Shown one piece after another: positions 57 through 25,315 of a stretch of 27,065 bases of DNA. Each line of letters opens with the position of its first letter. The first letter of the stretch is position 1. The position numbers and the translations under genes were made by a program. This stretch comes from Promethearchaeota archaeon (GTDB lineage Archaea; Asgardarchaeota; Thorarchaeia; Thorarchaeales; Thorarchaeaceae), in NCBI GenBank assembly GCA_027031765.1, contig JALVPN010000181.1:1-27065 (forward strand). Reading direction: 5' to 3'. The notes beneath the pieces were generated by a model. That model worked only from the letters and a program-made list of their open reading frames with translations, was not told the DNA's origin and searched no databases.

Positions 57-1271
57 TCACCACTCTTCTTCTGGCAGGTCGTGCGGATGGTCGTCCTCGC
101 CCCCTTCGTAGGCGAAGTACTGGCCCCCACGGAGTGGGCTGAACTCGCGGAGGCGTTCAACAGTGGGTACCAGCGCCTCTACGAAGGCGTCAATCTCGGC
201 CTGTGTGTTGAACCGCGACAGTGAGACACGTAGGGAACCGTGGGAAATCTCTGGTGGCAGTCCGACCGCCTTGAGCACATGGCTCCCCTGCAGGGTCTTC
301 GACGAGCACGCTGAGCCAGTTGAGACCGCGAAGCCTTCCGTGTCGAGGTGTACGAGCATCGACTCGCCCTCCACCTGTTCGACGACCATGCTGAATATAT
401 GTGGCACCCGCCGGGTGGGGTGCCCGGTGAGCCTGTAGTCCGTGAGCGTCTCGGCAATCTTTGCCGCAAGGTAGTCCTGCAGAGCGGCAATCCGTTCGTT
501 GTCAGCCGGGTCCCAAAGCTCCACAGCCCGTGCGAACCCAACAGCACCGGGGATGTTCTCAACACCGGGCCGCAGTCGCCGCTCCTCGTCGCCGCCCTCC
601 ATTATCCTCCTGATCTTCGTCCCCCTGCGGATGTAGAGTGCGCCGATGCCCTTGGGACCATGGATGTGGTGTGCATCAAACGTAGTCAGGTCAACGGGCA
701 GCGTGGTCACATCAATGGGGACACGCAGATAGCTGTGTGTTGCGTCCATGTGGAAGAGGACACCGTGCTCGGACGTGATACGGCCAATCTCTTCAACAGG
801 CTGGAGCGTCCCGATCTCGCCGTTCGCGTGCTGGACTGACACGAGGACCGTGGTGTCCCGGATGACCTCTTCAAGCGCTGAGGGGTCCACCATCCCGTAC
901 TCGTCGACACCCAGTACTGTCACCTCGAAGCCGTCAGCCTCAAGTGCCTTGCATGTCCGCAGCACCGACTGGACCTCCACAGCACTGGTGATGATGTGGT
1001 CACCGCGCGCCCTGTTCGCCAGGGCCGCCCCACGAATGCCCAAGTTGTTGGACTCTGTTGCACCCGACGTGAACACAATCTCCCGCGGGTCGGCCCCTAT
1101 TGAAGCTGCTATCGTCTTCCGGGCACTCTCAAGGCCCCTGACGGCAGCCACATCCCTTGAGTGGCTCAGTTCCAGGCCCGCCGTACCGACATGCTCCCTG
1201 AAATATGGCAGCATGGCCTCAATTACCCGCTCATCAACAGGTGTCGAGTTAGCATTGTCAAGATACGCCAT
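57..1271 (-). CDS. iscS: IscS/NifS-like (class V PLP aminotransferase fold) cysteine desulfurase homolog, probably catalytically atypical
   Basis: Family motifs present: YLDNxxxTP, IVFTSGATESNN, EIGTLQP, HxDA, HGPKGIGALY, AVSTGSACSS (Cys322), SLRVSLSRFNT. GGGGTGA Shine-Dalgarno lies 7 nt before the ATG. The PLP-binding Lys, His and Gln positions are substituted (see findings). Confidence 0.9.
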   Translation of the reverse strand: MAYLDNANSTPVDERVIEAMLPYFREHVGTAGLELSHSRDVAAVRGLESARKTIAASIGADPREIVFTSGATESNNLGIRGAALANRARGDHIITSAVEVQSVLRTCKALEADGFEVTVLGVDEYGMVDPSALEEVIRDTTVLVSVQHANGEIGTLQPVEEIGRITSEHGVLFHMDATHSYLRVPIDVTTLPVDLTTFDAHHIHGPKGIGALYIRRGTKIRRIMEGGDEERRLRPGVENIPGAVGFARAVELWDPADNERIAALQDYLAAKIAETLTDYRLTGHPTRRVPHIFSMVVEQVEGESMLVHLDTEGFAVSTGSACSSKTLQGSHVLKAVGLPPEISHGSLRVSLSRFNTQAEIDAFVEALVPTVERLREFSPLRGGQYFAYEGGEDDHPHDLPEEEW

Positions 1272-1749: not shown

Positions 1750-1778
1750 TTCACTATAGTGAAGCCACTGTGATATAA
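1750..1778 (-). promoter_or_regulatory. Putative promoter (TTATAT, 1778-1773) with a downstream perfect 14-bp palindrome TTCACTATAGTGAA (1750-1763), a candidate operator
   Basis: The palindrome was read directly from the sequence. It lies between a TATA-like box and the expected transcription start of the regulator-iscS unit. Confidence 0.5.
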
Positions 1779-2120
1779 GGGTGACGACATGACCATTGTC
1801 ACCACGTGCCGCGGACACGTCGGACGCAACGGAGTCAGGAGGCCTTGATGTCGGTCCAGTGCAGTTGTCATGTGAGGACTACGGACTACACTGTGCCGTC
1901 GGGCCCACCATCTGACGACACTGCAGATGTGACAGGCCTGCCCACGAGGCCGCACGAGTCCATCCCAGCAGACGCCGAAACGGGCCACACGGTATACTGG
2001 GGCCACAATAGCTCAGATAACAGCTGGCCATCCGGGCCGTGGTGTCAGAAAAAGTGTGGGTGCGCACCCCGGAGCCCAGATGGACGCCCGGGGCTGCACA
2101 CGCGGTACTTGATGGGGCCA

Positions 2121-3761
2121 TCAACTGGAGCGGAGTCGTGCGAGGTTGAACACAGCGCCGAGGCCCACCAGACCGAGGACTATGCCTGTCAGCGGCCAGC
2201 CCGCCGAGATGCTGTTCATGAACAGGTCTGACAGGCTCGGCACGACCCTGAGGCCGGCGTCGCGGATGCTCTTCGTGTAGCTCTGGCCCTCGAAAGTGTA
2301 CGTCACCCGGCCATCGAAGAACCCGTACACACCCTCATACTCAGGCACCACCGTATACGTGAGGCTGGTCTCCGCACCAGGCGCCAATGACGGGACGTGG
2401 GCCACAAGACTACCATCAACACTCAGCTGCGGGTATACTTCGGTAAGACGGGCATCGCTGATCTCAATGTCACTGATGGTGTCGCTGCCGGCATTTGTGA
2501 CCGTGATTGTGACCGTGACCGGAGAGCCCACCGTAGGGCTGGCAGGCGAGAACGTCCTTACGGCCTGCACAAGGGGGGGGTACGAGGTCTCGTTGAAGTG
2601 GACGATGTAGTCAGACTGAGGGCCGAGCATAGAGGCCGCCCAGAAGGCCGTCCCATCGGTGTAGTAGCTGTGGTTCGCATCGTAGGGCTCAATGCCCGTG
2701 ATGCTAGTGTCCCCCATGTCAATGGCCACAATGGACATGCCCTGGGATGTCGAACTGAAGGGGGTGATTGTGCCTGTCGACCCGATTGCATCGCTGAGTA
2801 ACATCTCTGTGTCGCCGGCCTGCACGATCTGGTCGCGGACGAACCCGCCAATGCCGACGGCAACAGGCCCCTGTACTTGTGGGGCCTGAGCAATGACGTA
2901 GTCGACAAACCCGTGGCGAGGCCGGTTCATGCTGCTGGAACTAACGAGGCCAACCAGGTCTTCGATGTGCGGCAGACCAACAAGTGCGGCAGCAGAGCCA
3001 GGAGCACTGACGAACAGGTCAGCGTCCATTGCCGTGAGCATGCCCCCGGTAGTGAACGTGCCGACGATGTTCTGGATGAGCTGGCTCATTGGGTTGGAAA
3101 GGGTGTATACGAACAAATCAAGGGAGCTGATATTGCTGCCACCAGTGTTGTTCCCGCCACCAGGGAACATTGACTCATCAAGTCGAATTGAGAACACGCT
3201 CGAAACAGATATGGCAAGCGGTGACCCTGCAAGCTGTTGGACGACCTGTGCCATCCTGCCCGCTGCGACACCCTCCTCAAGGTCCATGTACACACCGACA
3301 ACAATGCTGAACTCGTCGCCGAGGTAGTCAATGATGTCACCAGGACCGCCTATGCCGCCGTCCTGTGCCGGGGCAAACCCCAGGTCACCGGGACCACTAT
3401 CATTGCCACCCATACCCATGAGCTCGAACAAGTAGTCGAGGAGCTCGCCACGGACCGCGAGCACCGCCACAGCGAGACAGCCATCATACATGTCCGCGTC
3501 AAGGTTGAAGACCCCCGTCACACCGGGCAGGGCAATCTGGCCATACAGTACAGCGGGCCGGCCCTCACTGTCAACGTGAGTGTAGATCACTTCTGCCCCG
3601 GACTCTATCAGTTGCGGGAGCATCTCCATTGGGCCTTGGGAAGACCCGGTCACGACAACGGGACCTGGAGGCAGCAGCACAGACGTAGCCACTGGGAGTA
3701 CAAGGAAACCGACCATGAAGAGGAGTGCCAAAGACTCTGTACGAAGACGCATTACCAACAA
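2121..3761 (-). CDS. Secreted, C-terminally membrane-anchored protein with a C-terminal DUF11/BatD/TRAP-beta-like Ig domain
   Basis: N-terminal signal-like helix (RLRTESLALLFMVGFLVLPV). Ig-like segment VRTFSPASPTVGSPVTVTITVTNAGSDTISDIEISD...SLAPGAETSLTYTVVPEYEGVYGFFDGRVTY. C-terminal TM (GWPLTGIVLGLVGLGAVFNL) followed by ARLRSS. GGAGGT SD present. Confidence 0.75.
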   Translation of the reverse strand: MLVMRLRTESLALLFMVGFLVLPVATSVLLPPGPVVVTGSSQGPMEMLPQLIESGAEVIYTHVDSEGRPAVLYGQIALPGVTGVFNLDADMYDGCLAVAVLAVRGELLDYLFELMGMGGNDSGPGDLGFAPAQDGGIGGPGDIIDYLGDEFSIVVGVYMDLEEGVAAGRMAQVVQQLAGSPLAISVSSVFSIRLDESMFPGGGNNTGGSNISSLDLFVYTLSNPMSQLIQNIVGTFTTGGMLTAMDADLFVSAPGSAAALVGLPHIEDLVGLVSSSSMNRPRHGFVDYVIAQAPQVQGPVAVGIGGFVRDQIVQAGDTEMLLSDAIGSTGTITPFSSTSQGMSIVAIDMGDTSITGIEPYDANHSYYTDGTAFWAASMLGPQSDYIVHFNETSYPPLVQAVRTFSPASPTVGSPVTVTITVTNAGSDTISDIEISDARLTEVYPQLSVDGSLVAHVPSLAPGAETSLTYTVVPEYEGVYGFFDGRVTYTFEGQSYTKSIRDAGLRVVPSLSDLFMNSISAGWPLTGIVLGLVGLGAVFNLARLRSS

Positions 3762-6816: not shown

Positions 6817-7776
6817 TCAGCCACGCCCCTCTTTCTCGTATGGTACACCAATGGCCTTGGGCGGCACGGAGCGACGGATACCTGCCAGGGCCACGATGAC
6901 CAAGAGGTACGGTACCATCTTGATGAAGTTGTTGTACGCCTGTAGCCACTCGAGGCCCGGTACGATTGGCAGTGCGTATTGGAGGCCGTTCAGGAACCCA
7001 AAGAAGAGGCCCGCAGCCAGACACCCCAGCGGTGTCCAGTTGCCGAAGATCAGGGCCGCAAGGGCGATGAACCCGCGTCCTGAGGTCATGAGCTTACCGA
7101 AGGCCGCCTCGAAGCCGATTGAGAGGTATGCCCCACCCAGACCGGCAAGACAGCCGCTTATGACCACGGCCACAGTCCTGATGTTCTCCACGTTGACACC
7201 TGCTGCATCGAGCGTCGCAGGGTCTTCACCCGCAGCACGCACCCGGAGCCCGAAAGGCGTCTTGTACATCACATACCAGCTCACAGCCACCATGACGAAC
7301 ATCATGTAGATGATTGGTGACAGCTCACCGAACGCGAGACCGATGACGGGGACGTCACGTATGGCCTCGATGCGTATGCGGGGGAGCTGGGTCACCGTGT
7401 CAGAGTAGCCCTTGGCGCCCCAGATGACCTGTAGCAACAGGGTGGTCAGTCCAGAAGCGAGGAAGATTATCCCGGTCCCACTCACAATGTGGTTGCCCTT
7501 GTACTTGACGCAGACCACCGCATGCACCAGGGCCAAGAGCCCACCGGCGACCACTGCCCCGAGCACGCCGATCCATGGGTTGCCCGTGAAATAGGTCACG
7601 GCCACTGCGGAGAACGCACCGATGAGCATCATCCCCTCAAGTCCGATGTTGACAACGCCCGAACGCTCCGAGAACATACCCCCAAGTGCGGTGAGTACGA
7701 GTGGCGTGCCCATCTGGAGGGTTGCGTGCAACAGCCAGCCCACCAGCACCAGTGTCGGGTCGCCAGTCTGCATCAT
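6817..7776 (-). CDS. ABC transporter permease, nucleoside/simple-sugar (BPD_transp_2, NupC/YufQ-like)
   Basis: TPLVLTALGGMFSERSGVVNIGLEGMML, TPFGLRVRAAGEDP, GRGFIALAALIFGNWTP, PYLLVIVAL, P-x-A-I-G-x-P-Y. ATGA overlap with the upstream permease. Confidence 0.93.
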   Translation of the reverse strand: MMQTGDPTLVLVGWLLHATLQMGTPLVLTALGGMFSERSGVVNIGLEGMMLIGAFSAVAVTYFTGNPWIGVLGAVVAGGLLALVHAVVCVKYKGNHIVSGTGIIFLASGLTTLLLQVIWGAKGYSDTVTQLPRIRIEAIRDVPVIGLAFGELSPIIYMMFVMVAVSWYVMYKTPFGLRVRAAGEDPATLDAAGVNVENIRTVAVVISGCLAGLGGAYLSIGFEAAFGKLMTSGRGFIALAALIFGNWTPLGCLAAGLFFGFLNGLQYALPIVPGLEWLQAYNNFIKMVPYLLVIVALAGIRRSVPPKAIGVPYEKEGRG

Positions 7777-9332
7777 GGTACACCCCCGTTTCCAGATGAC
7801 AGGACACCCGTCCTCTCAAGTCGCAGCGACAGGAGGGCGACGACCAGCAAGAACAGTCCGGTCGCAGACGTGGTCGCTGCCATCGATACCAGTCCAGTAG
7901 CAGCAGCAGTCCCTGCCCCAAGGAGCCACTCTATGGAGGCGAAGAGGGCGAGCGTGATCCCGTCAGACTGCAGTGTCACGAGCCTGAAGAATGCCACAAG
8001 GGCCAGGAAGGCCCCAGTCATGAACAGGAACGCCATGATAGTCCCAGTGGACGAGGTGAAGGCAATGACCAGACCAACGGCACCCAGCACCAAAGAGACA
8101 GTGGTGGTCATAAGGTGCGGCAGGGCCTGTGGGCGCTGCTCACGGAACCACACGGCGTACTGGACACCACTACGGGCCAGCCAGTCCACAAGCTTCGGCG
8201 CTGCCACAAACAGCACAATGAGGCCCTCAATGACCGAAACCATCTCAATGGGCACCCCCGCAACGCGTTGCATGCTGGTCCCACCAGCTTTCAGGGCCCC
8301 AAAGAAGAGGGCCCCGAAGAGCACACCCCAGGGGTTGTTGTTGCCCAGTACCGCCACGGTGATGCCGTCCCAGCCGAGGCCACCCGACCAGCCGTCCCTG
8401 AACCGGTGGTGGTAACCGAGGATCTCTGTACCCCCGGCGAGGCCAGCAAGGACACCGCTCAGCGTGAGCGCGATGGCCATGTTCTTCTTCGCATTGATGC
8501 CGGCATACTCTGCGGCCTCTCTGTTCAGGCCCACGGCACGCATCTCGTACCCGAGCACGGTCCCGTTTATCACGTAGTCGACGACTATGACCGCGCCCAC
8601 TGCAATCAGCAGGCCAGCATGGAGGAACGGACTGCCGAGCTTCGGGAGATAGGCACTGGGCAATATGAGGGGCGTCTGGGGTGAGGGCTGTACCTGACCG
8701 GGCTCGAAGAAGGGGCCATTGCGGCTGACCATCCACTGGGTCAACAGGATGGCCACGTAGCTCAGCATCATCGTCGTGACCACCTCGTGTGCACCACGGT
8801 ATGCCTTGAGGACACCGGGTACCAGGGCCCACAGCCCGCCGACAAGCATGGCGAAGAGCAGGCACGCCAACGGGTGCACGATGATGGGGAGGGCGAACAT
8901 GTAGCCCAGCACGGTGGCAGCAATGGAACCTACGTACAGCTGGCCCTCAGCACCAATGTTGAAGAGGCCACACTTGAAGGCCAGCGCGACCGAAAGGCCC
9001 GTCAGGACCAGCGGCGTGGCATAGAACAGCACCCTGTCGACCTGCGTCGCAGCACCGTAGACCAGGGCGATGTAAGCAAGGCCTGCGTTGTAGCCCGCCA
9101 TGGACATGAGTGTGGCACCTGTGAGCACCGCCAGCACGACTGCACCGACGGCCCAGCCGACCGCTCTCTGCACTTCAGGCTCCGTCACCCGGCGGACCGA
9201 CTCGACCATGAGGCCTACGATGTTCCTGAGCAGCAACACGGGCCCCTTCTCACTCTCACTGGGGGCTCTGTCCTGCATGTCCGCAGTGACGTGTTCACTC
9301 CTGTCGTCGTCAACGGTACTGTCAACACTCAC
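7773..9332 (-). CDS. ABC transporter permease (NupB/YufP-like) with an extra C-terminal membrane domain
   Basis: TPLVLTGLSVALAFKCGLFNIGAEGQLY, AHEVVTTMMLSY, LGYEMRAVGLN, GWDGITVAVLGNNNPWG. AGGAGGTG SD and GTG start overlapping the ATPase stop. Confidence 0.92.
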   Translation of the reverse strand: MSVDSTVDDDRSEHVTADMQDRAPSESEKGPVLLLRNIVGLMVESVRRVTEPEVQRAVGWAVGAVVLAVLTGATLMSMAGYNAGLAYIALVYGAATQVDRVLFYATPLVLTGLSVALAFKCGLFNIGAEGQLYVGSIAATVLGYMFALPIIVHPLACLLFAMLVGGLWALVPGVLKAYRGAHEVVTTMMLSYVAILLTQWMVSRNGPFFEPGQVQPSPQTPLILPSAYLPKLGSPFLHAGLLIAVGAVIVVDYVINGTVLGYEMRAVGLNREAAEYAGINAKKNMAIALTLSGVLAGLAGGTEILGYHHRFRDGWSGGLGWDGITVAVLGNNNPWGVLFGALFFGALKAGGTSMQRVAGVPIEMVSVIEGLIVLFVAAPKLVDWLARSGVQYAVWFREQRPQALPHLMTTTVSLVLGAVGLVIAFTSSTGTIMAFLFMTGAFLALVAFFRLVTLQSDGITLALFASIEWLLGAGTAAATGLVSMAATTSATGLFLLVVALLSLRLERTGVLSSGNGGVP

Positions 9333-10909
9333 GTGGACACCTCCTGCACGCTGTGTCCGGCCATGAGGAGGCCGAGTTCCTCAGCGCTGGTCTCCTCCGG
9401 GTCCCGCAGGGCCACAATCCGGCCGTCAAACATGACTGCAATCCGGTCCGAGAGGTTCATTATCTCGTCGAGTTCCGCCGACACGAGCAGTACAGCTGCA
9501 CCACTGTCACGCATGTCCACCAACACCCTGTGTATGTACTCGGTGGCCCCGACGTCGAGGCCACGCGTCGGCTGTGCCGCGAGGACCACCCGCGGACGAC
9601 CTGCCAGCTCCCGCGCCACGACGACCTTCTGCTGGTTGCCACCTGACAGCGTGGCTGCTGCATCCCTCACACTACCAGCGCGGATGTCATAGTCCTGCAC
9701 GAGGGTGACTGCAAAGTCATGGATGGCGGACAGGTCGAGGAAGGCATGTCCGGGCCCAGTTGCGAAGGGCGCCCGGTACTCACTGCCAAGGATGAGGTTC
9801 TCCATTACGGAGAAGCCCAGTACCAGGCCCCTGCGCTGACGGTCCTCAGGGATGTGACACACGCCGGCCTCCCGGATATCGCGCGCACTCCAATCCGTCA
9901 CATCAACACCGTCCACGAGTATGCGTCCAGACTCCACCCTGCGCAGACCTGCGACGGCCTCCACAAGCTCCGTCTGGCCGTTGCCCTCCACACCAGCAAT
10001 CCCGACGACCTCGCCCCGCCGGACCGAGATGCTGGCACCACGTACCGCCTCGACGCCACGGTTGTCCTGCACGTGGAGGTCCTCCACCACGAGTGCTACA
10101 TCTCCGGGACGGGCGGGGGCCTTCTGCACCTTGAAAGACACTGTGCGCCCGACCATCATGCGGGCAAGCTCCTCGGGGGACGTCTCCTCCCTGTCAACAG
10201 TGCCGACCAGCTCTCCGTCACGGAGCACACTGATACGGTCGCACAGGGCCATCGGCTCCCGCAGCTTGTGGGTTATGAGGATGATAGTCCGCCCCTGCTC
10301 CCTGAAGTGCTCCAGGGTGACGAAGAGCTCGTCCACCTCCTGAGGGGTGAGCACTGATGTCGGCTCGTCCAGTATCAGGATGTCCGCCTGACGGTACAGT
10401 GCCTTCATGATCTCGACCCGCTGCTGCATCCCAACGGAGATGTCTGCGACCCGCGCATCAGGGTCAACTGCAAGGCCGTTCTCGACGGCAATCTCACGGA
10501 TCCGTCGTGCAGCCGCTGTCAGGTCCAGCGGCATCAGGGATGCCACGGGCCCCGGACTCTTGCGTCCGGCTCTGCGGAGGACGTCACGCACCGGCTCCAG
10601 ACCGAGGACAACGTTCTCGGTGACCGTCAGGGAGGGTATCAGCCTGAAGTGCTGGTGCACCATGCCGACGCCCCGGACAATGGCGTCCTGTGGTGACTGG
10701 AGCTCGACCTCCTCGCCCTTTATCACTACGCGTCCACGGTCCTTCGACAGCAGGCCATATAGGATGTTCATCAGCGTCGTCTTGCCGGCCCCGTTCTCTC
10801 CCAGTAGGCCGTGCACCTCGCCTGCCTGCACCCGGAGTGTGATGCCACGGTTCGCCTGTGTGCCGCTGGGAAAGGTCTTCCATATGTCCTCTAGCTCGAC
10901 GGCGTACAC
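9329..10909 (-). CDS. ABC transporter ATP-binding protein, duplicated-domain (NupA/YufO/RbsA-like)
   Basis: Walker A GENGAGKTT, Walker B ILILDEPT, second-half signature LSGGNQQK, AAQPTRGLDVGA, SAELDE. Start placed at GTG 10909 behind AGGAG; the ORF track extends to 11065. Confidence 0.95.
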   Translation of the reverse strand: MYAVELEDIWKTFPSGTQANRGITLRVQAGEVHGLLGENGAGKTTLMNILYGLLSKDRGRVVIKGEEVELQSPQDAIVRGVGMVHQHFRLIPSLTVTENVVLGLEPVRDVLRRAGRKSPGPVASLMPLDLTAAARRIREIAVENGLAVDPDARVADISVGMQQRVEIMKALYRQADILILDEPTSVLTPQEVDELFVTLEHFREQGRTIILITHKLREPMALCDRISVLRDGELVGTVDREETSPEELARMMVGRTVSFKVQKAPARPGDVALVVEDLHVQDNRGVEAVRGASISVRRGEVVGIAGVEGNGQTELVEAVAGLRRVESGRILVDGVDVTDWSARDIREAGVCHIPEDRQRRGLVLGFSVMENLILGSEYRAPFATGPGHAFLDLSAIHDFAVTLVQDYDIRAGSVRDAAATLSGGNQQKVVVARELAGRPRVVLAAQPTRGLDVGATEYIHRVLVDMRDSGAAVLLVSAELDEIMNLSDRIAVMFDGRIVALRDPEETSAEELGLLMAGHSVQEVST

Positions 10910-11263
10910 CTCTCTGGCTCCTATGTGCAGTCTGCCTATGGTCTGCCAGCGTTTTCGGGCACATGCCCGACAGCTCTGCCGGTATTTAACAGTGCGGGGA
11001 GAGCACCTGGGGTCGTGCAGTGGGCACCATGTGGGATGGCCCACGGGAGGGCCCCGAAAGGACACACACGGCCCAGTGGGGGTGGCAGGTCGGCCCTGTC
11101 AGTCGGCACGTTGCATGCAATACCCCACGACCCCTCGCTCCGGACAGGAGGGCCGTGACCCAGCCCCGGTCGAGGCGGGATGGGTGGGAGGCCTGCTGGG
11201 AGTGACCGGCGACTGTTGGAGGAGACGTAAGGATGAGGGTAGGAGAAGTAGAGAAAGGGTGTC

Positions 11264-11288
11264 GGCAGGGGGTTGCATGCCCCCTGCC
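11264..11288 (-). terminator. GC-rich stem-loop downstream of the BMP gene (terminator/attenuator or mRNA-stabilising hairpin)
   Basis: On the minus strand GGCAGGGGG-CATGCAA-CCCCCTGCC forms a 9-bp perfect stem, followed by the pyrimidine-rich tract CCCTTTCTCTACTTCTCCT. Confidence 0.55.
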
Positions 11289-11300
11289 TTGCCCGACGCC

Positions 11301-12344
11301 TCAGTCGAGCCAGTACTTGTGGTCATACTTGGTCATGTTGATCTCGCCGCTGATTATCTTCTGCTTCAGGTTCTCAACAGCGGTCTTCACGTTGTCAGGT
11401 AGGGTGAGGAGGTCTTCATTGACCTCGTAGTCGAGGCCGCCATTCGCAAGGGTGAAGGTCTTGATACCACCCGAGAAGTTGTCGTTCTTGACGTCCTCTA
11501 TGATGTCGTAGACTGCCACGTCCACACGCTTGAGCATGGATGTCAGACAGACAGTGGGCGGCTGCGGGTTCTCAGGGTCAGCGCATCCGAGGTACATCTG
11601 CGGGCTGTCCACTCCAATCACCCACACGTCCTCGTGGTTCTTGGCACTGGTAAAGACGCCAAGGCCCGAACGACCAGCAGCTGCAAAGACTACGTCAATC
11701 CCCGAGTCGTACATTGCATCTGCAATGTGCTGGCCGCCAGCCGTGTCAACCCAGGAGTTCGTGTACTGGACTGTGAAGTTGACACCCGGCCTTGTGTAGT
11801 TGGCCCCGAAGACATAGCCGCCAGCGAACTTGTTGATCAGGGGTATGTCCATGCCACCGACAAAGCCAATCTTGCCGGTCTGTGTCATCAGGCCAGCGAT
11901 TGCCCCCACTAGTGCGGAGCCCTCGTGTTCGTTGAACAACAGGCTCGCCACGTTCGAGGCATTGACGTACATGTCCACTATTGCAAACGACTGGTTCGGG
12001 TAGTCGGCTGCGACCGCGCTCAGGGCATCGGCCTGGTCAAAGCCGATTGAGATTATGAGGTCGTAGCCCTGCGCTGCGTAGTCACGCAAATAAGGCTCGT
12101 ACTCGTCTATCGTTTCCGGCTCGACGTACGTGAAGGGCATCCCGAGCTCTTCCTGTGCTCGCAGTGCGCCGTTGTAGCAGCCATCGTTGAAGGACTTGTC
12201 ACCCAGCCCACCAGTCGCAAAGACAATTGCAATCCTTGGAGCTGGCGGGAACAACATTGGGCCAAGGAACACGACGGCGCCAATCCCAGCCACTGCGAGC
12301 ACCACAATCACAACTATTGCTTTGGTCTTGCTGCTCGCGCTCAT
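11301..12344 (-). CDS. BMP-family (PnrA/TmpC-like) ABC substrate-binding protein, N-terminally membrane anchored
   Basis: GGLGDKSFNDG, YDLIISIGF, FAIVD, FNEHEGSALVGAIA, KIGFVGGM, DVVFAAAGRSGLG, VIGVDS, LTSMLKRVD. N-terminal KTK plus hydrophobic helix with no lipobox Cys. Confidence 0.93.
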   Translation of the reverse strand: MSASSKTKAIVVIVVLAVAGIGAVVFLGPMLFPPAPRIAIVFATGGLGDKSFNDGCYNGALRAQEELGMPFTYVEPETIDEYEPYLRDYAAQGYDLIISIGFDQADALSAVAADYPNQSFAIVDMYVNASNVASLLFNEHEGSALVGAIAGLMTQTGKIGFVGGMDIPLINKFAGGYVFGANYTRPGVNFTVQYTNSWVDTAGGQHIADAMYDSGIDVVFAAAGRSGLGVFTSAKNHEDVWVIGVDSPQMYLGCADPENPQPPTVCLTSMLKRVDVAVYDIIEDVKNDNFSGGIKTFTLANGGLDYEVNEDLLTLPDNVKTAVENLKQKIISGEINMTKYDHKYWLD

Positions 12345-12640
12345 GAGTCTGATACTCCATCTCTTCGTAGTCTGGTGGCCCCGAAGACCACACTCCTGGC
12401 CCTGCACATGCAGCTCGCCGTGCGGGGCCATCGGGCAAACGTATGCGCCACTAATGCAAACGGGCTAAAAAGTCTGGCCCAATGTCGTTTCCAACATGTC
12501 TACGTCCTGGCACTGACGTACGGCCCGTCAGGACTCCCGCTGCACACAGTCCTCATACGCGATGGCGTGGGCAATTGGGACTCCCGAGCCTGTCCTCGCT
12601 ACGGGACAAGGCTATATGTCACAGTGATGACGACAGGCCC

Positions 12641-14932: not shown

Positions 14933-15347
14933 GGTGGCGTCGTCCGGTATCTCAACGGGCCCGACCTCAATTCCCGCTGACGAGACCCAAGAGATTTCTA
15001 CTGGCAGTATTCATCTCTCCTCGCAGTGCCTTGTCTGTAACAGGGCGTGAGGTGGCTATTATCCTTTGTCCCACCAGCCCAACGCGCCCACATCGTCAGA
15101 ATGCTGGTGGTGCAGCAGGTGGCACCCCCGGAGAAAGTCCCTGCGATGGGCCCACGAGAACAGTGCGACGGAGTGCGGTGCATGGTCGCGTGGCCCCGTC
15201 GGCAGTGGGCGGTTCGTGGGCTGTGTGGTGGTACTGCGCATGTGCGACCAGGTCACAACACTGACACGGGCCACCAGACAGGGTGACCGAATGGATAAAT
15301 ATCTGGTCACCATCACCTTACACCCTTCCAAGGCAGGAGACAGAAAC

Positions 15348-16697
15348 ATGGCAACCGAGAACATTCCCACAGACCGCAAGGAGCGGATTGCATGGTACCT
15401 CTACGACTTTGCAAACACCAGCTTCACGGTCCTCATGGTCACGGCGTTGTTCCCGCTATACTTCAAGGGACTCGTCACACACTTTGTCATGGACGACGGT
15501 TCCCTAGGGACTGCGCTGTGGGGGTATGCTGGTAGCATAACCATGATAGTGATAGCCCTGACATCGCCGGTCCTGGGAGCAATTGCAGACTACTCGGGTA
15601 CCAAGAAGAAGTTCCTCACGTTCTATACGGCACTGTGTATCACGTTCAACGCACTGCTGTACTTCGCCACTCCCGATGTCCCTGCGTTCCTGGGACTCCC
15701 AATATGGGTGTGGGCATGGGTAGTGTTCATTGTGGCAAACATAGGGTTCCAGGGAGCACTGCCATTCTACAACGCGTGGCTGCCCGAGATAAGCGATGAA
15801 GAGACCATTGGTCGGATTGGCGGTATCGGTTTCGCCGCCGGCTACGTGGGTGCTCTGTGCACGATTGTCATAGCACTGATCAGCGTCCTCATGGACCTAC
15901 CACCAACGCTGCCGTTCCTCCTCGGCGCCCTGTTCTTCCTCGTGTTCGCGATACCGAGTATCCTCGGCCTCAAGAACCGTCCACCAACAGCCCGGCCAGA
16001 AGAGGCGGACTTGGGGCTGGCCCGGGTGGGTTTCAAGCGCGTTGCGCGTACCTTCCGTGAGATGAAGCATTATCAGGGCCTACCACTGTTCTTGGTAGCC
16101 TACTTCCTCTTCAGTGATGCCATCACAACCGTGATTTACTTTGCCAGCATCTATGGGGAGACCGTCTATGCCTTCAGCCAGACACAGATACTCGTCTTCT
16201 TCGCAGTCACACAGTTCGCCGCTATCCCGGGTGCTTTCATCTTCGGGTACTTCGCGGACGCGATAGGCACGAAGAGAACGCTGATACTCACACTCATACT
16301 CTGGGTCGACTCGCTCGTGGTTGCGTTCCTAGGGTCGAGTCAGATAGTCTGGTGGGTCGTGGGCATGATTGCAGGCATGGGCATGGGCTCCGCCCAGAGC
16401 ACCGCCCGGAGCATGTTCGGACAGTACATCCCTGAAGAGAAGAAGAGTGAGATGTACGGCCTATATGCCCTGACCGGGAAGTTCGCAGCAATCCTCGGGC
16501 CGGCAGTCTACTCTACGGTCATCCTCTGGGCCAGCGCGACGGGTCACGACATAGTGACTGCAAACAGGCTTGCGCTCCTGGCAATCCTCGCGTTCTTCGT
16601 CCTCTCCATCCTCATCCTCCTGAAGGTGCGACAGCCAGTCATGGGCAAGTCCAAGACCGGGACCCATCTCGAAGACGACTTCGCACCAGGCGCGTGA
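15348..16697 (+). CDS. MFS transporter, UMF1/BtlA (COG2270; Atg22-like) family
   Basis: AWYLYDFANTSF, SPVLGAIADYSGTKKKFL, FYNAWLPEIS, GFAAGYVG, FLFSDAITT, GMGSAQSTARSMF, YGLYALTGKFAAILGP; about 12 TM. GGAG SD before ATG 15348. Confidence 0.9.
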   Translation: MATENIPTDRKERIAWYLYDFANTSFTVLMVTALFPLYFKGLVTHFVMDDGSLGTALWGYAGSITMIVIALTSPVLGAIADYSGTKKKFLTFYTALCITFNALLYFATPDVPAFLGLPIWVWAWVVFIVANIGFQGALPFYNAWLPEISDEETIGRIGGIGFAAGYVGALCTIVIALISVLMDLPPTLPFLLGALFFLVFAIPSILGLKNRPPTARPEEADLGLARVGFKRVARTFREMKHYQGLPLFLVAYFLFSDAITTVIYFASIYGETVYAFSQTQILVFFAVTQFAAIPGAFIFGYFADAIGTKRTLILTLILWVDSLVVAFLGSSQIVWWVVGMIAGMGMGSAQSTARSMFGQYIPEEKKSEMYGLYALTGKFAAILGPAVYSTVILWASATGHDIVTANRLALLAILAFFVLSILILLKVRQPVMGKSKTGTHLEDDFAPGA

Positions 16698-18744: not shown

Positions 18745-18833
18745 CCAGAGGCGCGCAGGATGCACACCAAGAGGACATGTTGACCAGCACCACAGTACTA
18801 CCACCCAGAGGCACGCACGATGCACACCAAGAG
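18745..18833 (+). repeat. 29-bp imperfect direct repeat (27/29 identical, 60-bp period) duplicating the start region of the surface-protein gene
   Basis: CCAGAGGCGCGCAGGATGCACACCAAGAG at 18745-18773 and CCAGAGGCACGCACGATGCACACCAAGAG at 18805-18833. Confidence 0.85.
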
Positions 18834-21800
18834 AGTACTGCCACTCATAGTGTTAGTTGTAGTAATCCCTGTCCTGCTGGCGGCTGGCCCCATTGCCTTG
18901 ACAGGCCATCACGCGACCGTGGTGACGTGTCCAGATGACGGACAGACCACACGGAACACTGCCAAGCCGGTACCACGCCGGGACAACAGCCCCACTGGGT
19001 CATCTCTCAACGACTACGTCGACGCTCATATCGCGAGTGTGTACGGAGAGGTGGAGCACTTCACTTACATGACCAGGCCGGGTTCCGACTATGCAACACT
19101 GACAGAGGAGCCCACGGGCTATGCTTCCATCGAATACTGCACAGAGTGGGACCCGTGGCCAGACGGCTGGGAAACTGCTGAGAACCCCTATGGGCATGAC
19201 GACTTTGCGGCGATAGGCAGCGGGGGCGTCGATGACGACGGCTTCATAGGCGTGGTAGGAGACCCGCAGGGAGGCCGGAGAGGTGGGGTGCTCCTGAGCA
19301 ATGCGTACAACCTTGTCATGGAGGACTCCTTTAATCTCTCAGTGTTCCTCCTTGACAACCGTGCACCACGTAGCACCGCACAACTGAAGGTCTACTTCCG
19401 TGACAAGAACGGCAACTGGGACTACATGTTCTGTCTCGACGACTGTGACCCGCCTTCGCCCGGCAACTGGAGGCACTACTCAGTCACGGTCACTGACAGT
19501 CAGTACCTGCACCGGTTTTTCAGGGTCAAGTACGAAGCGACCAAAGTGCAGGGCGGCACGGTCCTGGACATGGTTGGAGTGGACAGCCACCACCTCATGA
19601 AGGGTGCGCAGTACCGCATGGAACAGCAATTCCAGTTCACTCACATCCCCTACGACGACTGGGGCGCGGAGCTGCTCACGGTGGAACTCCACAGCACCGT
19701 TTCAGAGCCTTTGGCGGTGGAGGTCAAGACCGGGTCCGGGCAGTGGGTAAGACTGGGGACGGCGACGGGTACTGTGTCCTACAACGTACACAGATACGTG
19801 ACATCACCGACGCTTAGTGTCAGGCTTGTCGACAGATACGCCGACTCTGATAGTGATACCTGGAGGGTGAGTGGTATGTACCTCCACTTTGAGGACGACA
19901 TCCCGACGGACGGCGGCGCGCCTACCACTGACTCGCTGTACGATGGCGACAACTTCTATGCCTGCAAGTCGCCGCACCATGGGATGTATGCATACATGAC
20001 CACCCGACACTTTGACAATGACGGGGCATTGGACATCAACTACTGCAAGCTTGCAGCGGTGTCCGGAAAGCAAACATTGTGGGAGGTCAAGTTCGACGTC
20101 CGTGGGAGAAAGACTACTGTCGAGCGTGGTGCACACTACATTGCAGTCGCAGACTGCATCCCACGCCTACGCGGCATCACACTGGCGGTAACATGGCGCG
20201 TAAGGTTCCTCTGGGACCACCCGGATGTACAGGACGTGTCGTTCCGAGTGACGACCGTCGACGACCACTCCCTTGTCAGTCATACATACGCTAGGAACTG
20301 GGATGTCGAGACCCGACTTGAGCTGATGGAGTATGCGCTGTCTGATGACCGTGTGGATGTTGGCGGCTCGCTCCAGGCCACGGGCCGTGTCAAGTACTAC
20401 CAGTCTGCTGCCAACATAACGCCTGACCCTGACTTTGTTGAGGCCCATGTGCTACGGACAGCACCATCTGACGCCTCGTGGATCGGCTCGATGTCATCGG
20501 GGGGCACCTTCAGTGTCAGCGTGGACATGTCTGAAGAAGTGGGTGTGCAGACCTTCGAGTTTGAAGTGTGCGACACAACGCACCACGTAGACCGGCTTCT
20601 TGGGACATACAACCGGAGCGCAATAGCCGACAGGCTGAGGGTGTGCAGTATGTGGTCTGACGACCCCCAGAACCGCACCGATGTGGGGATCACGGTTACA
20701 CTGTCCGCTCACCTCACGTACGAGTATGACAACAGCCCGTTGACAGCTGGGACCGTACTGTTGAACGGACATACGATGACCCATACTGGGGACGGTATGT
20801 GGACGGTCGAGCAGTCGTATGACACTGTGACCTCGGTCACGTACGACAACATCACGGTCACAGGGGACCCCTACGGCATCACCACAGTCAACAACAACTC
20901 GCAGCAGGTGACCGTGATATGGGACAGGGTGGTGGTGGACATGTGCCATGCGGACGACACACGTATCAATGTCGGCGCCACCACAAAGGTCTATGTCGGG
21001 CTCTACTACGAGTACGACCACGAGGACGTGACAGACGGGCAGGTCCACATCAATGGCCATAGCGCAGTCCATGTGGGAGGTGGCACATGGCAGGCAGCAG
21101 TATCGGAGACGTCGGTCACGGGAGTCACATTCGACACGGTGGTGGTTGCCAACAACACACATGGGATAACCGTCGTCGACCAGAACGGCCAGTATGCTAG
21201 AGTGGTCTGGGATGCCCTTGTAGTGACCATTGTGGGCCCGACCGACCAGCGCATCAATGTGGGCGACAACGCGAGTGGCATTGTCGTGACCGCAACGTAC
21301 TCCTATGACGACACACCGTACCATGGTACCCTCGACCTCAACTGCACGACCTTCGCGTACGACACAGTTGGCAGACATGCCTACACCGTGGCCGCAGCCC
21401 GTGGTGACGACTCGTACGGCATCACGGTCATAGAGACCAACGACGTAGCGTGGTGCATATGGGACGCCCTTGTTGTCACAGTGTCTGGCCCTGATGACCA
21501 ACGTATCAACGTGGGCGACACTGCAACCGGTATTGTGGCGACAGCTGTCTACGCATACGATGGTTCGGAGTATGATGGTGGCCTCAATCTGAACGACACA
21601 GTGTTCACACATGATGCCGTGGGTATGTGGGCCTACACGGTCGAGTCTGCTGTGGGCGATGACCCCTTCGGGATCACTGTCATCCAGACCAATGATGTGA
21701 CCTGGTGCATCTGGGACGCGGTCGAAGTGTACGGGCTCGGCTCTCCCGAGTGGGCCATCCTTGGCATGCCGTTCCAGCTCTGGTGCCAGGCACAACTTGC

Positions 21801-23130
21801 ATACGACGGCCACGCCCTCTGCGGTGACGACGACGTTGTCCTCGCCGGTCAGAACGCCGTCTGGAACGGCACGCATTTCGTGGTCACTGTCACGCCCACA
21901 GCTACTGGTGAGGCCCTCTACTACGTCAACTCCACCGCCGAAACGACGTATGGCATCACCGCAGTGTGTGTTTCACCTGAGACCGTCACCAAGGTCACCG
22001 ACGTACCAGAGGTCAGCAATATTGCCAGCAGTTTCCAGCCGAATGGCAGCCTGTACGTAGGCGTCTACCGTGGAGAACCACTGTGGATCCACTGGGACCC
22101 CGTGAATGACCCTGAGCCGCCAGTCCTCAGTTTTGCAGTTGGAGGCGCATATTTTCGGGAGTGGCGTGTGGTCTCCCTGTGGAGCAGACGTACCGTAGCA
22201 TCGGGCACACAGGCAGGGACATATAGTTTCCAAGTGGAGGCTGGACTGCCATATACCATCGGGAACTACACGTACCGGATTGAAGCATCGAACATGGCCG
22301 GCTACACCACAACAGCACTGGTCCGGGTGACAGTACGTGACTACACGCCCCCTGCTGTGAGCCACCTACAGGATGTCACCCTTGAGTCGGGCACAACCGG
22401 ACACCTTACGTGGGAGATTGTAGAACCGAACCTCCAGTCTGTTGTCCTGACTGTGGACGGCGACACCGTGGACGGGATATCGGGGCCCGTTGCCCAGTAC
22501 GAGTGGACGGTGGAAGGCCTCACCTTGGGTACGCACTCCGTCCTCCTGAACGTGACCAACACTTGGGGCCACATGTCCAACGACACTGTTACCGTGTACG
22601 TCGTGGACACAGTACAACCCACTGTGAGTCACCCGGAGGACATCGAGTTCACGGAGGGGACGACCGGGCACTACGTGGAGTGGACGGGGAGCGACCTGAA
22701 CCCCGCCACATATGAGGTGTACCACAATGACACCCTGGTCCGCTCCGGGCTGTGGAACGAGAGCTCAGAGACCTTCAGAATCGACCTCGACTGGCTCCCA
22801 GCCGGGACACATCTGTTCCGCATCCGGCTCACTGATGGTGCAGGGAACAGTGTCGAGGACGAGGTGGTCATAACCGTCATGACCACGACCACGACCACCA
22901 CCACCACCACTACAACAACACGGGGTACGTCGACTACCGCACCAGACACTACTGCGCCGGGCGGAGTCCTCGACAACGGGCCTCCTACACCAGCTGCACA
23001 GGCGCTCGTCCTTCTCCTGATAGGCAGCGTCGGGACTGGCATTGTGGCAGTCCTGTTTGTGCTACAGAGAAGAGGCATGCTCTCAGTAGGGCGCCTCGGG
23101 CCGGCAACAAACAACATACACCACCCCTGA
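18820..23130 (+). CDS. Large secreted, C-terminally anchored surface protein with beta-sandwich/Ig-like repeats and a poly-Thr linker
   Basis: Signal peptide MHTKRVLPLIVLVVVIPVLLAA; N-terminal beta-rich domains; five ...YGIT...(I/V)WD repeats; Ig-like DxxxPxVSHxxD...GTH...GNS domains; T13 linker; TM ALVLLLIGSVGTGIVAVLFVL followed by QRR. Confidence 0.9.
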   Translation: MHTKRVLPLIVLVVVIPVLLAAGPIALTGHHATVVTCPDDGQTTRNTAKPVPRRDNSPTGSSLNDYVDAHIASVYGEVEHFTYMTRPGSDYATLTEEPTGYASIEYCTEWDPWPDGWETAENPYGHDDFAAIGSGGVDDDGFIGVVGDPQGGRRGGVLLSNAYNLVMEDSFNLSVFLLDNRAPRSTAQLKVYFRDKNGNWDYMFCLDDCDPPSPGNWRHYSVTVTDSQYLHRFFRVKYEATKVQGGTVLDMVGVDSHHLMKGAQYRMEQQFQFTHIPYDDWGAELLTVELHSTVSEPLAVEVKTGSGQWVRLGTATGTVSYNVHRYVTSPTLSVRLVDRYADSDSDTWRVSGMYLHFEDDIPTDGGAPTTDSLYDGDNFYACKSPHHGMYAYMTTRHFDNDGALDINYCKLAAVSGKQTLWEVKFDVRGRKTTVERGAHYIAVADCIPRLRGITLAVTWRVRFLWDHPDVQDVSFRVTTVDDHSLVSHTYARNWDVETRLELMEYALSDDRVDVGGSLQATGRVKYYQSAANITPDPDFVEAHVLRTAPSDASWIGSMSSGGTFSVSVDMSEEVGVQTFEFEVCDTTHHVDRLLGTYNRSAIADRLRVCSMWSDDPQNRTDVGITVTLSAHLTYEYDNSPLTAGTVLLNGHTMTHTGDGMWTVEQSYDTVTSVTYDNITVTGDPYGITTVNNNSQQVTVIWDRVVVDMCHADDTRINVGATTKVYVGLYYEYDHEDVTDGQVHINGHSAVHVGGGTWQAAVSETSVTGVTFDTVVVANNTHGITVVDQNGQYARVVWDALVVTIVGPTDQRINVGDNASGIVVTATYSYDDTPYHGTLDLNCTTFAYDTVGRHAYTVAAARGDDSYGITVIETNDVAWCIWDALVVTVSGPDDQRINVGDTATGIVATAVYAYDGSEYDGGLNLNDTVFTHDAVGMWAYTVESAVGDDPFGITVIQTNDVTWCIWDAVEVYGLGSPEWAILGMPFQLWCQAQLAYDGHALCGDDDVVLAGQNAVWNGTHFVVTVTPTATGEALYYVNSTAETTYGITAVCVSPETVTKVTDVPEVSNIASSFQPNGSLYVGVYRGEPLWIHWDPVNDPEPPVLSFAVGGAYFREWRVVSLWSRRTVASGTQAGTYSFQVEAGLPYTIGNYTYRIEASNMAGYTTTALVRVTVRDYTPPAVSHLQDVTLESGTTGHLTWEIVEPNLQSVVLTVDGDTVDGISGPVAQYEWTVEGLTLGTHSVLLNVTNTWGHMSNDTVTVYVVDTVQPTVSHPEDIEFTEGTTGHYVEWTGSDLNPATYEVYHNDTLVRSGLWNESSETFRIDLDWLPAGTHLFRIRLTDGAGNSVEDEVVITVMTTTTTTTTTTTTTRGTSTTAPDTTAPGGVLDNGPPTPAAQALVLLLIGSVGTGIVAVLFVLQRRGMLSVGRLGPATNNIHHP
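20623..22002 (+). repeat. Five tandem intragenic repeats of about 84-100 aa
   Basis: Units end in WD at 20925, 21213, 21465 and 21717 (periods 288, 252, 252 nt), and a fifth ends near 22002. Shared D-x-R-I-N-V-G, Y-x-Y-D and Y/H/F-G-I-T motifs. Confidence 0.85.
22882..22920 (+). repeat. Poly-threonine (ACN)13 low-complexity linker
   Basis: Thirteen consecutive Thr codons, mostly ACC/ACG. Confidence 0.9.
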
Positions 23131-23365: not shown

Positions 23366-25315
23366 ATGCAACTGCTGGGTTCTTTCAGGTTCTACAAGAC
23401 ATTGATGGACGACGTGGAGTGGCGGTTCTTTGAGGGCTTGGTGGCTGAAGCATCAAGCTTTCGAGACCTGGTCGTCCGGCTCACGGAGGCCATGTGTGAG
23501 ACTCGTCGCACGGACGGTCTGCTGTGCGCCGCCATTGACATGATTACCATCATTGGTGACAGGCAACTAGCACTGAAGATGAGACCCGTATACGCGGGCC
23601 ATCGGCTCTATGATGTCTGGATGCTGTGGGCAAGGTCGTTTTGGGATGCCTCAGTCTACGAGGCTGCCAGTCAAGCAGTCAGGGACATCATCCTCAGCGA
23701 GTCCGACACTTGGATAAGACTCATGTTCATTGACCTTGCATTGATGTTGGTATCAGAGCGAGACATGAAGAGGGCAATGGAATACGTCCAGCAGGGCTTG
23801 GCACTGGCCGGTGAGTCGGAGGACTACGTGTTCGCAAGAGTCCGGCTGCTGCGACATCTGGCACTGCTGTATTGGTTGATGGGCGAGTATGACAAAGGGG
23901 ATTCGATGGCCCAAGAGTCTATCGACCTTGCGAGAAAGTACGATGACGAGCTCCACCTGCCACCTGCGCTCAACGCGCTGAGCCTGAACAGGCCAGCGCA
24001 CGAGACGCTGCCTATCTTTGAAGAGATGCTGGAGATAGCAACAAGGCATGACCTGGAGATACAGCGGGAAGTTGCACTGAACAACATTGGGTTCACGTAC
24101 CTTGTCTTTGGTGAGTACACCAAGGCAATACGTGCGCTCGAAGGGGCGCTAGAAGCAGCAGATGCGATTGGGCTCCCTGTGTTCCATCCCTACCTGAACC
24201 TCGCAGCAGTATACGCAAACCTGGGTGACATTGACAGTGCACTCGCCAATGCAGAGAAGGCTGTTGAGGTTTCCAGAGTCACCGAGCCCGACAATGCCAA
24301 TGCATACCTCATCATGGCGAGGGCACTAGCCCTCAAGCACCGCTTTGAAGAGGCATTTGACTACCTAGAAACGGGTGGAGAGATTGCGCACAGGACAGGC
24401 AGTCCCCGCTACCAGGCACACTACTACTTGGTCAGGGGGGTCTACGAACTGGAACGCGGAAACCTCGGGCCGGCCAAGCGGTCATTTGAACGTGCACTGA
24501 GGACAGCCCAGAGGCACCGTTTTGAACGCTTCATAGTCCGTTCGCTCCTCTATCTGGCCGAGGTAGCAGTTGCAATGTTCGTTGAGGACTCGGACCAGGC
24601 ACATGTGGACGAGGCGAGTGAGGCGCTCGGGCTACTGGAGAAGATTGCTGACGAGCAGGAACTGGTCGGACTTGCAGTACAGGTGGCGGTGGTGAAGGCC
24701 CAGACTGACATCATGCTGAAAGATGTGGAGAGGGCACGCAGCACCCTTGAGAAGGCCCTGCGAAACTGTCAGGAGTTCGGTCTCGACCGACTGCGTGGTG
24801 TGGTCGAGAAACAACTCGAACGTCTGGACACGTACCAGGCCCCCGACTCTCTGTTCCAGCGCTTCAGGAAGTTCGTCAGACAGATCAGCATGCTGGGCAT
24901 CCGCACCCGACGCATCAAGTTCAGGGTACTGGGGACAATAGTGATCCTAGGGGAGTCGGGGATAGAGGTCTTTGCAAAGTACCTTGACGACAGACTGGTC
25001 AGCGACCCCTCCCTCGTGGCCGGACTGATAACGGCAGTCTCGAACTTCGCCCGCGAACTCAGACAGGACTCAAGAGGCCAGCTGCAGTCCATCGTGCACG
25101 AGGACATTGCAGTGCTCCTAGAACACCGGGCAGGAGCAACATGTGCTCTCCTATGTGACAGGGACTGTTCGGAGGCACGACTGCTGGAACGCGAGTTCCT
25201 CTCGAGGTTCACCGACCGATATGCCGATGAGCTGGAACGCTTCGGTGATGGCTTCGCCGAGCGGCTGCCCGCGGACGACCTGTTCGAAGAGGTACTGTCA
25301 CAATGGCGCCTATAG
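23366..25315 (+). CDS. Tetratricopeptide-repeat protein with C-terminal longin-like domain
   Basis: TPR units such as ALNNIGFTYLVFGEYTKAIRALEGAL, YLNLAAVYANLGDIDSALANAEKAV and YYLVRGVYELERGNLGPAKRSFERAL. The C-terminal 130 aa (GTIVILGESGIEVF...LVAGLITAVSNFAREL...LQSIVHEDIAVLLEH...CALLCDRD...FLSRFTDRY) fit the longin pattern. Confidence 0.8.
   Translation: MQLLGSFRFYKTLMDDVEWRFFEGLVAEASSFRDLVVRLTEAMCETRRTDGLLCAAIDMITIIGDRQLALKMRPVYAGHRLYDVWMLWARSFWDASVYEAASQAVRDIILSESDTWIRLMFIDLALMLVSERDMKRAMEYVQQGLALAGESEDYVFARVRLLRHLALLYWLMGEYDKGDSMAQESIDLARKYDDELHLPPALNALSLNRPAHETLPIFEEMLEIATRHDLEIQREVALNNIGFTYLVFGEYTKAIRALEGALEAADAIGLPVFHPYLNLAAVYANLGDIDSALANAEKAVEVSRVTEPDNANAYLIMARALALKHRFEEAFDYLETGGEIAHRTGSPRYQAHYYLVRGVYELERGNLGPAKRSFERALRTAQRHRFERFIVRSLLYLAEVAVAMFVEDSDQAHVDEASEALGLLEKIADEQELVGLAVQVAVVKAQTDIMLKDVERARSTLEKALRNCQEFGLDRLRGVVEKQLERLDTYQAPDSLFQRFRKFVRQISMLGIRTRRIKFRVLGTIVILGESGIEVFAKYLDDRLVSDPSLVAGLITAVSNFARELRQDSRGQLQSIVHEDIAVLLEHRAGATCALLCDRDCSEARLLEREFLSRFTDRYADELERFGDGFAERLPADDLFEEVLSQWRL

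Follow-up and report, generated by a model that had tools for sequence, protein, structure and literature searches.

The window analysed here is a complete contig of 27,065 nucleotides (C181; JALVPN010000181.1, assembly GCA_027031765.1) from a Promethearchaeota archaeon of the order Thorarchaeales, whose genome is about 2.95 Mb in size and 95% complete. At its first end, on the minus strand and at positions 57 to 1271 (stop codon included), lies a gene for a 404-residue IscS/MisS-like protein (P0001) without the catalytic lysine of cysteine desulfurases. Its open reading frame is intact, as an initial annotation of the window, made from the sequence alone, had stated. The protein matches the Pfam family Aminotran_5 (PF00266) from end to end (E 6.6e-72), and its closest NCBIfam models are NifS and IscS, yet it stays under every curated equivalog cut-off (419.3 bits against a cut-off of 530.75 for NifS, and 363.7 against 643.2 for IscS). 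Its top solved relatives are the lysine-bearing cysteine desulfurase 9wep (E 9e-106) and Archaeoglobus fulgidus IscS2 (4eb5, E 2e-97), with human NFS1 and Escherichia coli IscS likewise among the best. An AlphaFold2 model built from 76 sequences reached a mean confidence (pLDDT) of 86.9, with low-confidence parts at residues 32-36 and 232-235, in the cysteine loop and over the final 18 residues, and in Foldseek it superimposed on NFS1 and on the A. fulgidus and E. coli IscS proteins with TM-scores of about 0.85-0.89 (normalised by model length). By the Pfam match and this model, the protein keeps the aminotransferase class V fold with the architecture of a type I desulfurase.

Directly upstream on the same strand, positions 1278 to 1724 encode a 148-residue helix-turn-helix (HTH) protein with a TTG start codon and a C-terminal Cys/His motif, hereafter the HTH/Cys protein, whose stop codon lies 6 nt before the start of the IscS-like gene. 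A TATA-like box, CTTATATC (1772 to 1779, minus strand), is the putative promoter of the operon, and between it and the start of the HTH/Cys gene we found a perfect, operator-like 14-bp palindrome, TTCACTATAGTGAA (1750 to 1763). In four related loci (L011, L013, L014 and L015), the box has the counterpart CTTATTA, and after it, in the same place as the palindrome, stands the related motif TTCACwATwGTrAA.

We compared the pocket for pyridoxal 5'-phosphate (PLP) with that of E. coli K-12 IscS (RefSeq record; pairwise BLASTP over the full length, 43% identity). Lys206, which forms the Schiff base in the E. coli enzyme, is replaced by His202 (codon CAC, positions 666 to 668, minus strand), and five further residues are exchanged as well: His104 for Val100, Asn155 for Gly151, Gln183 for His179, Ser203 for Asp199 and Thr243 for Val237. 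A HMMER alignment with the lysine-bearing chain 9wep gave identical substitutions, and all six, with their numbering, agree with those listed in the initial annotation. Retained are Thr76 (Thr72 here), Asp180 (Asp176), His205 (His201), Arg354 (Arg348) and Cys328 (Cys322), the last being the persulfide or ligand cysteine of the loop STGSAC (codon at 306 to 308, minus strand). Cys322, Asp176 and the arginine of the SLRxS motif had been named as retained before, and the alignment bears this out; all three are also invariant in the clade described below.

Of the eight contacts that E. coli IscS makes with PLP, the equivalents of Asp180, His205 and Thr76 remain here, and the other five (His104, Asn155, Gln183, Ser203 and Thr243) are replaced. 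Mutagenesis of E. coli IscS found His104, Asp180, Gln183, Lys206 and Cys328 each essential for activity, and Arg354 binds the substrate carboxylate in that enzyme (PMC9978102). The change of Ser203 to Asp puts a negative charge at the position that the PLP phosphate would occupy, and because of this exchange at the phosphate-binding position and the loss of the stacking histidine, PLP binding appears unlikely. The protein might still be a PLP enzyme if it held the cofactor non-covalently or through another lysine, and so have some desulfurase or related activity. Asp176, His201, Thr72 and Arg348 do remain, and the K206A variant of E. coli IscS keeps a very low reaction rate (PMC9978102). Set against this are the five lost contacts, the aspartate at the Ser203 position, the lack of lysine in all 59 clade members inspected and the finding that the A. 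fulgidus protein is already inactive with a single Lys-to-Asp change (PMC7585200), and we regard a surviving PLP enzyme as very improbable.

A search of 5.8 billion proteins returned about 60 relatives at 61-72% identity, followed by a sharp fall to 54% or less, and nearly all of these orthologs came from metagenome-assembled genomes (MAGs) of Thorarchaeota, 'Promethearchaeota', Hermod- or Lokiarchaeota. Clustering at 50% puts the whole clade into one cluster, which scores 574 bits, with the next representative at 389. Residues were counted in its 59 near-full-length members: position 202 is a lysine in none of them, and Cys322 is present in all 59. The protein is well conserved and under strong purifying selection, with dN/dS values of 0.069 (dS 0.48) and 0.063 (dS 1.10) in the two ortholog pairs whose dS was unsaturated. 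The initial annotation had argued for selection rather than decay or sequencing error, and its view holds. A decaying pseudogene, or an artefact of assembly or sequencing, has nothing in its favour beyond the loss of catalytic residues and is refuted by the clade data: the reading frame is intact, dN/dS is about 0.065, 59 orthologs share the lysine-less state, and the contigs of the probable source run, a hydrothermal-vent metagenome, carry the identical whole gene with its His codon, although these are not independent evidence. The search of sequencing runs matched only the probable source sample, with no RNA run among the matches. Two 33-base pieces from the read search were considered as variants of the gene and rejected, as they belong to canonical homologs of other organisms at the conserved HGPKG region.

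The substitutions do define a clade, nested in a wider lysine-less lineage. They are, however, not the six coordinated changes for which they had been taken, for most of them are not fixed. Within the clade, position 100 is T, V, H or S, position 151 is G, S, A or R, position 179 is H (36 members), Q (21) or Y, position 202 is H (37), L (12), R (8) or V (2), and position 237 is V, I, T or F. These five lie between the 65th and 80th percentile of column entropy, and so rank among the more variable sites of the clade. Asp199, in contrast, is specific to the clade and 97% fixed, and no member deviates at Thr72, Asp176, His201, Cys322 or Arg348. About seven state changes were counted on the clade tree for His179 and about seven for His202, and a test of their coupling gave no signal (p about 0.5, with few independent pairs, 5-7). 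The initial annotation had also proposed a new metal site made of Asp176, His179, Asp199, His201 and His202; since His179 and His202 flip about seven times each and do so uncoupled, such a five-ligand site cannot be a conserved feature, and only Asp176, Asp199 and His201 among its ligands are conserved.

We then placed the clade among its 133 nearest 50%-cluster representatives (340-460 residues), 14 of which lack the lysine, all 14 keeping the cysteine. A quick tree and a careful maximum-likelihood (ML) tree both recover the Thorarchaeota clade as monophyletic (100/100), with a long stem, and place it in a mostly lysine-less group together with a second clade, here called the 'D-Q-D-H-S-H-T' clade. 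The quick tree makes the latter its sister, with a support of 93 by the SH-like approximate likelihood ratio test (SH-aLRT); the ML tree supports the wider group (87/97) and leaves its inner branching without resolution. In the ML tree the A. fulgidus type (signature H-N-D-A-S-N-D-S/T-C) stands apart as a clade of its own (100/95), and the well-supported branches require at least 4-5 changes of the lysine state. An approximately unbiased (AU) test against joining the Thorarchaeota clade with the A. fulgidus type gave a borderline p of 0.053, for a group named after the tree had been seen, and independent loss of the lysine is therefore favoured, not proven. In this clade we have a new lineage of a peculiar type of protein that was known before from Archaeoglobus.

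The 'D-Q-D-H-S-H-T' proteins are the nearest relatives outside the clade (50-54% identity) and come from Korarchaeota, Heimdallarchaeota, Methanomethylovorans, Methanobacteriaceae and Chloroflexota MAGs. Methanosarcina acetivorans IscS1, reported to be without the lysine (PMC13066941), may belong with them. Both clades share a two-residue insertion near residue 34, Gln147, a histidine at the Gln183 position, the Arg354 equivalent and the cysteine. They differ in that the 'D-Q-D-H-S-H-T' clade has invariant Asp100, Gln151 and His179, Thr or Leu at 202, and a Ser kept at 199, whereas the Thorarchaeota clade varies at 100, 151 and 179, has Asp199 fixed and is the only one of the two to carry a C-terminal extension. 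No IscU gene lay within the flanks of the two 'D-Q-D-H-S-H-T' loci examined (L017 and L018).

This extension (residues 384-404; positions 60 to 122, minus strand) is acidic, contains histidines and ends in tryptophan. Every member of the clade has an acidic tail, with a median of 8 Asp/Glu among the last 22 residues; adjacent histidines occur in 45 of 55 members and a terminal tryptophan in 46 of 55. The tail, to which the initial annotation had drawn attention, is hence a genuine, clade-specific feature, though not a universal one in its details, as one subclade has tails with neither the His cluster nor the Trp, and it is modelled by AlphaFold2 as disordered (pLDDT < 50). In the BLAST alignment, its last seven residues pair with the DLNSIEW motif of E. 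coli IscS (pattern D-L-x4-W). We do not claim kinship with the C-terminus of the E. coli protein or NFS1, E. coli IscS and the ISC-type representatives being far off in the tree, and as E. coli IscS groups elsewhere, the likeness may be convergent. Nor do we claim a connection of the acidic, Trp-terminated end with the targeting peptide of the eukaryotic CIA machinery, which was considered as well. A further metagenomic protein (P0124, 417 residues), which is lysine-less and IscS-like and belongs to another lineage beside a Hodarchaeota-labelled sequence, has an acidic tail with HHHD, which suggests that this type of tail recurs among lysine-less forms.

Pocket and tail together raise a second reading of the protein, a narrower form of the metal site proposed before. 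The pocket (Thr72, Asp176, Asp199, His201 and Arg348, with His179 and His202 in the subclade of our protein), the tail, or both would bind iron or a small ligand, and the protein would be an iron donor or sensor for IscU. In its full form, pocket and tail would make up a new iron or small-molecule site, and the protein would be the iron-delivering or iron-sensing half of a sulfide-dependent iron-sulfur (Fe-S) pair of Asgard archaea, distinct in function from the A. fulgidus-type pair that resides in some of the same genomes. Such a site would fit the near-fixation of Asp199 (97%) and the invariance of Thr72, Asp176, His201 and Arg348, of which the A. fulgidus type has lost the His205 and Arg354 equivalents; it would also fit the acidic residues and adjacent histidines of the tail, the HHHD tail of P0124 and the invariant alternative signature D/Q/H at 100/151/179 in the sister clade. 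It fits less well with the repeated flips of His179 (H/Q) and His202 (H/L/R/V), the variation at positions 100 and 151, the subclade whose tails have neither the His cluster nor the Trp, and the predicted disorder of the tail. On balance, we hold both the ligand-site reading and its fuller form to be quite unlikely.

The gene neighbourhood in relatives ties the protein to IscU. In six related loci (L010, L011 and L013-L016), the order is HTH/Cys protein, IscS-like gene, IscU, with IscU 85-1270 bp downstream of the ortholog in all six. An enoyl-CoA hydratase (ECH_1) follows IscU in five of them (L011, L013-L016) and in this genome too, where the only IscU gene lies on contig C151 (9053-9415) with the same hydratase after it (469-1206 of locus L009). 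The C151 IscU is 74-81% identical to the IscUs beside orthologs of our gene and 54-62% identical to those beside the other IscS type, and on the strength of the former figure we take it to be the cognate partner. Both IscU subtypes keep Cys33, Asp35, Cys58 and His101-Cys102, that is, all cluster ligands. The initial annotation had suggested looking for iscU or nifU and a canonical second iscS just beyond the window; iscU is indeed in the genome and beside the gene in the six relatives, but no canonical second iscS was found in this genome.

The third element of the cassette, the HTH/Cys protein, has about 205 homologs, almost all of them in Asgard MAGs, and no Pfam model. The family motif is C-x2-H-x3-C-x-H-x4-C-x2-C, in which three cysteines and one histidine are conserved at 98-100%; the cysteine that follows x3, the fourth of the motif's conserved cysteines, is present in 89% of homologs and is a serine in this copy. 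In each of the six relatives, the gene immediately upstream of the ortholog encodes a homolog, the one in L010 being matched in its C-terminal part only, owing to a run of N. From these sequence features it is reasonable to infer that the HTH/Cys protein is a candidate regulator of the cassette, and that the operon would be autoregulated and responsive to metal or Fe-S clusters. If so, the HTH/Cys protein and its palindrome would constitute a new type of Fe-S regulator, unrelated to IscR.

As to other Fe-S genes, we found no second type I desulfurase gene in this genome. A SufS-family gene on contig C40 (60545-61675), with Lys and Cys intact, is its sole candidate for a desulfurase that bears the lysine, and neither SufE nor SufU was seen beside it. 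There are also one SufB-type scaffold and one DUF59 gene. Contig C40 additionally encodes a second SufS-like class V protein (G000:C40:138928-140046), which is lysine-less too (SGNIGLMGPPG) and keeps its C-terminal cysteine, so that the genome holds two different lysine-less proteins of the desulfurase fold.

The SufS-family gene opens a third reading, in which Cys322 would take a persulfide from the C40 desulfurase and hand it on to IscU. The invariant cysteine loop would suit a relay of this kind, as would an intact SufS-family gene beside which neither SufE nor SufU was seen. However, the two genes are unlinked, and we know of no transpersulfidation from a type II to a type I protein. The vent origin makes free sulfide plausible, moreover, and minimal archaeal systems can use sulfide (PMC13066941). 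We therefore consider a persulfide relay unlikely.

We then searched 41 genomes of the order. Fourteen of them have an ortholog (at least 61% identity), and most have, besides it or in its place, a paralog at 42-47% identity. Some frames of 740-780 residues probably represent NifS-SelD fusions. Among the 16 paralogs fetched (L095-L109), 13 are of the A. fulgidus type, with Lys changed to Asp, His205 to Asn and Arg354 to Gln or Glu, and for 12 of these 13 the flank that was fetched contains a match to IscU, of a distinct subtype. Of the other paralogs fetched, one retains the Lys but carries a TAG codon in frame, and another is aberrant. Many sister Thorarchaeia genomes carry both lysine-less types, each with its own IscU. 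It follows from this survey that lysine-less IscS-IscU pairs are the rule in the order, often with two kinds per genome.

Taken together, the loss of PLP residues, the kept cysteine loop, the purifying selection, the gene order that relatives show with the regulator and IscU, and the place of the clade in the trees lead us to favour, at a probability of roughly 0.6, a PLP-independent, non-desulfurating protein of the IscS fold that serves as a dedicated co-scaffold of IscU and lends Cys322 to the cluster. The PLP-less pseudo-desulfurase of the initial annotation is upheld in so far as the gene is selected, keeps its loop cysteine and belongs with IscU; of the two roles suggested for it there, we prefer co-scaffold to sulfur relay. 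By analogy with the A. fulgidus IscS-IscU complex, a dimer would hold two IscU molecules, and the nascent cluster on IscU would receive its fourth ligand from Cys322 on the mobile loop of the IscS-like protein. The sulfur would come from environmental sulfide, given the hydrothermal-vent metagenome that was the source, or possibly from the separate SufS-family enzyme. The cassette would probably be transcribed from one promoter and controlled by the upstream HTH/Cys protein at the conserved palindrome.

Several points weigh against this co-scaffold reading. In the first place, the link between gene and partner is incomplete in this genome: C181 begins 56 bp past the stop codon of the gene, C151 continues upstream of iscU into unrelated genes, and comparing the first 400 bases of the window with the rest of the genome gave no overlap, and none joining C181 to C151; the contig of the source run likewise ends at window position 1. 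Second, the predicted complex with IscU lends the pairing weak support, with a score of 0.44 against 0.00 for the best control. Of 80 solved complexes, 58 passed the mark we applied, as did 2 of 110 mismatched pairs; passes at 0.60 or less came from only 7 of those 80 solved complexes, yet from both mismatched pairs that passed. The runs agreed in at least 77% of contacts with a partner pLDDT of at least 85, but as similar complexes have already been solved, the score may show likeness only. Third, unlike the A. fulgidus type, the clade keeps Arg348, Thr72, Asp176 and His201 invariant and has fixed Asp199; a role confined to donating a cysteine ligand does not explain this, and it may be a sign that something still binds in the old pocket. 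Nor does the Cys-ligand co-scaffold model explain the acidic, His-rich tail, which is conserved.

The remainder of the window holds genes of other kinds. A 546-residue predicted membrane or secreted protein (2121-3761, minus strand) has domain matches to TRAP_beta (E 6.7e-10) and DUF11; TRAP-beta, the translocon-associated protein beta, is a family typical of eukaryotes. An ordinary-looking ABC uptake operon of the PnrA/Bmp type (6817-12431, minus strand) comprises a substrate-binding protein, a fused double ATPase and two BPD_transp_2 permeases. On the plus strand lie an MFS transporter (15066-16697), whose top Pfam match is the Atg22-like vacuole effluxer family (E 3.9e-47), and a 1436-residue open reading frame with no Pfam match at E 1e-5 (18820-23130), which is followed by a 649-residue TPR protein (23366-25315).

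No archaea are more closely related to eukaryotes than the Asgard archaea, whose Fe-S assembly has been little studied. In the order sampled here, nearly all stand-alone IscS-type genes are without the catalytic lysine, and many genomes have two such lysine-less pairs with IscU, of different kinds. A structural role of IscS beside IscU, for which a single Archaeoglobus protein had been the known example, therefore seems to be common in sulfide-dwelling anaerobes and to have evolved repeatedly. With its partial pocket, new aspartate and tail, the clade is a good test case for what use the desulfurase fold is to IscU once sulfur production has been lost.

Proteins of this kind are already known, namely A. 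fulgidus IscS2 and M. acetivorans IscS1, which was reported to be lysine-less. The former, with its Lys changed to Asp, has no desulfurase activity and supplies a cysteine ligand to the [2Fe-2S] cluster on IscU (PMC7585200, PMC13066941); the initial annotation had cited this precedent, and its account matches PMC7585200. Our protein resembles A. fulgidus IscS2 (4eb5, 4eb7, 4hvk; D199K variant 4r5f) in its type I fold, the missing Schiff-base lysine, the kept loop cysteine and the pairing with an IscU gene (here in relatives), as well as in sequence (the E of 2e-97 given above) and structure (TM 0.87-0.93). The two differ in what became of the pocket. A. fulgidus IscS keeps His104 and Asn155 and has its Lys changed to Asp, His205 to Asn, Gln183 to Ala and Arg354 to Leu, whereas the Thorarchaeota clade has lost His104, Asn155 and Thr243, has Ser203 changed to Asp and keeps His205 and Arg354; the acidic His-rich tail is found in this clade and not in the A. 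fulgidus protein. With canonical IscS, NifS and NFS1 (E. coli IscS, 1p3w), it shares the fold, a dimer-type architecture, the cysteine loop and the equivalents of Asp180, His205, Thr76 and Arg354, and it differs from the E. coli enzyme in missing Lys206, His104, Gln183, Asn155, Ser203 and Thr243.

A third point of comparison is the archaeal MIS system of Garcia et al. 2022, a minimal Fe-S machinery made up of the two genes for MisS and MisU, which is taken here from the accounts in PMC13066941 and PMC12192291. As far as those descriptions go, the likeness lies in a pair of IscS-like and IscU-like genes with no chaperone or carrier genes alongside (hscAB, iscA and fdx were all missing from the flanks of L010, L011 and L013-L016), and in the presence of a SufB-type (SMS) scaffold in the same anaerobic archaeon. 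MIS as described in PMC12192291 has an active cysteine desulfurase, however, whereas the MisS-like member here lacks the catalytic lysine and PLP contacts and would not be one; and unlike MIS in these accounts, the cassette here includes a lineage-specific HTH/Cys regulator. What is new beside the known systems is the variability of the replacement residues, the contrast between lineages in retaining Arg354, the grouping with the 'D-Q-D-H-S-H-T' clade, the two co-resident lysine-less pairs in sister genomes, the statistics of the tail and the conserved operator-like motif.

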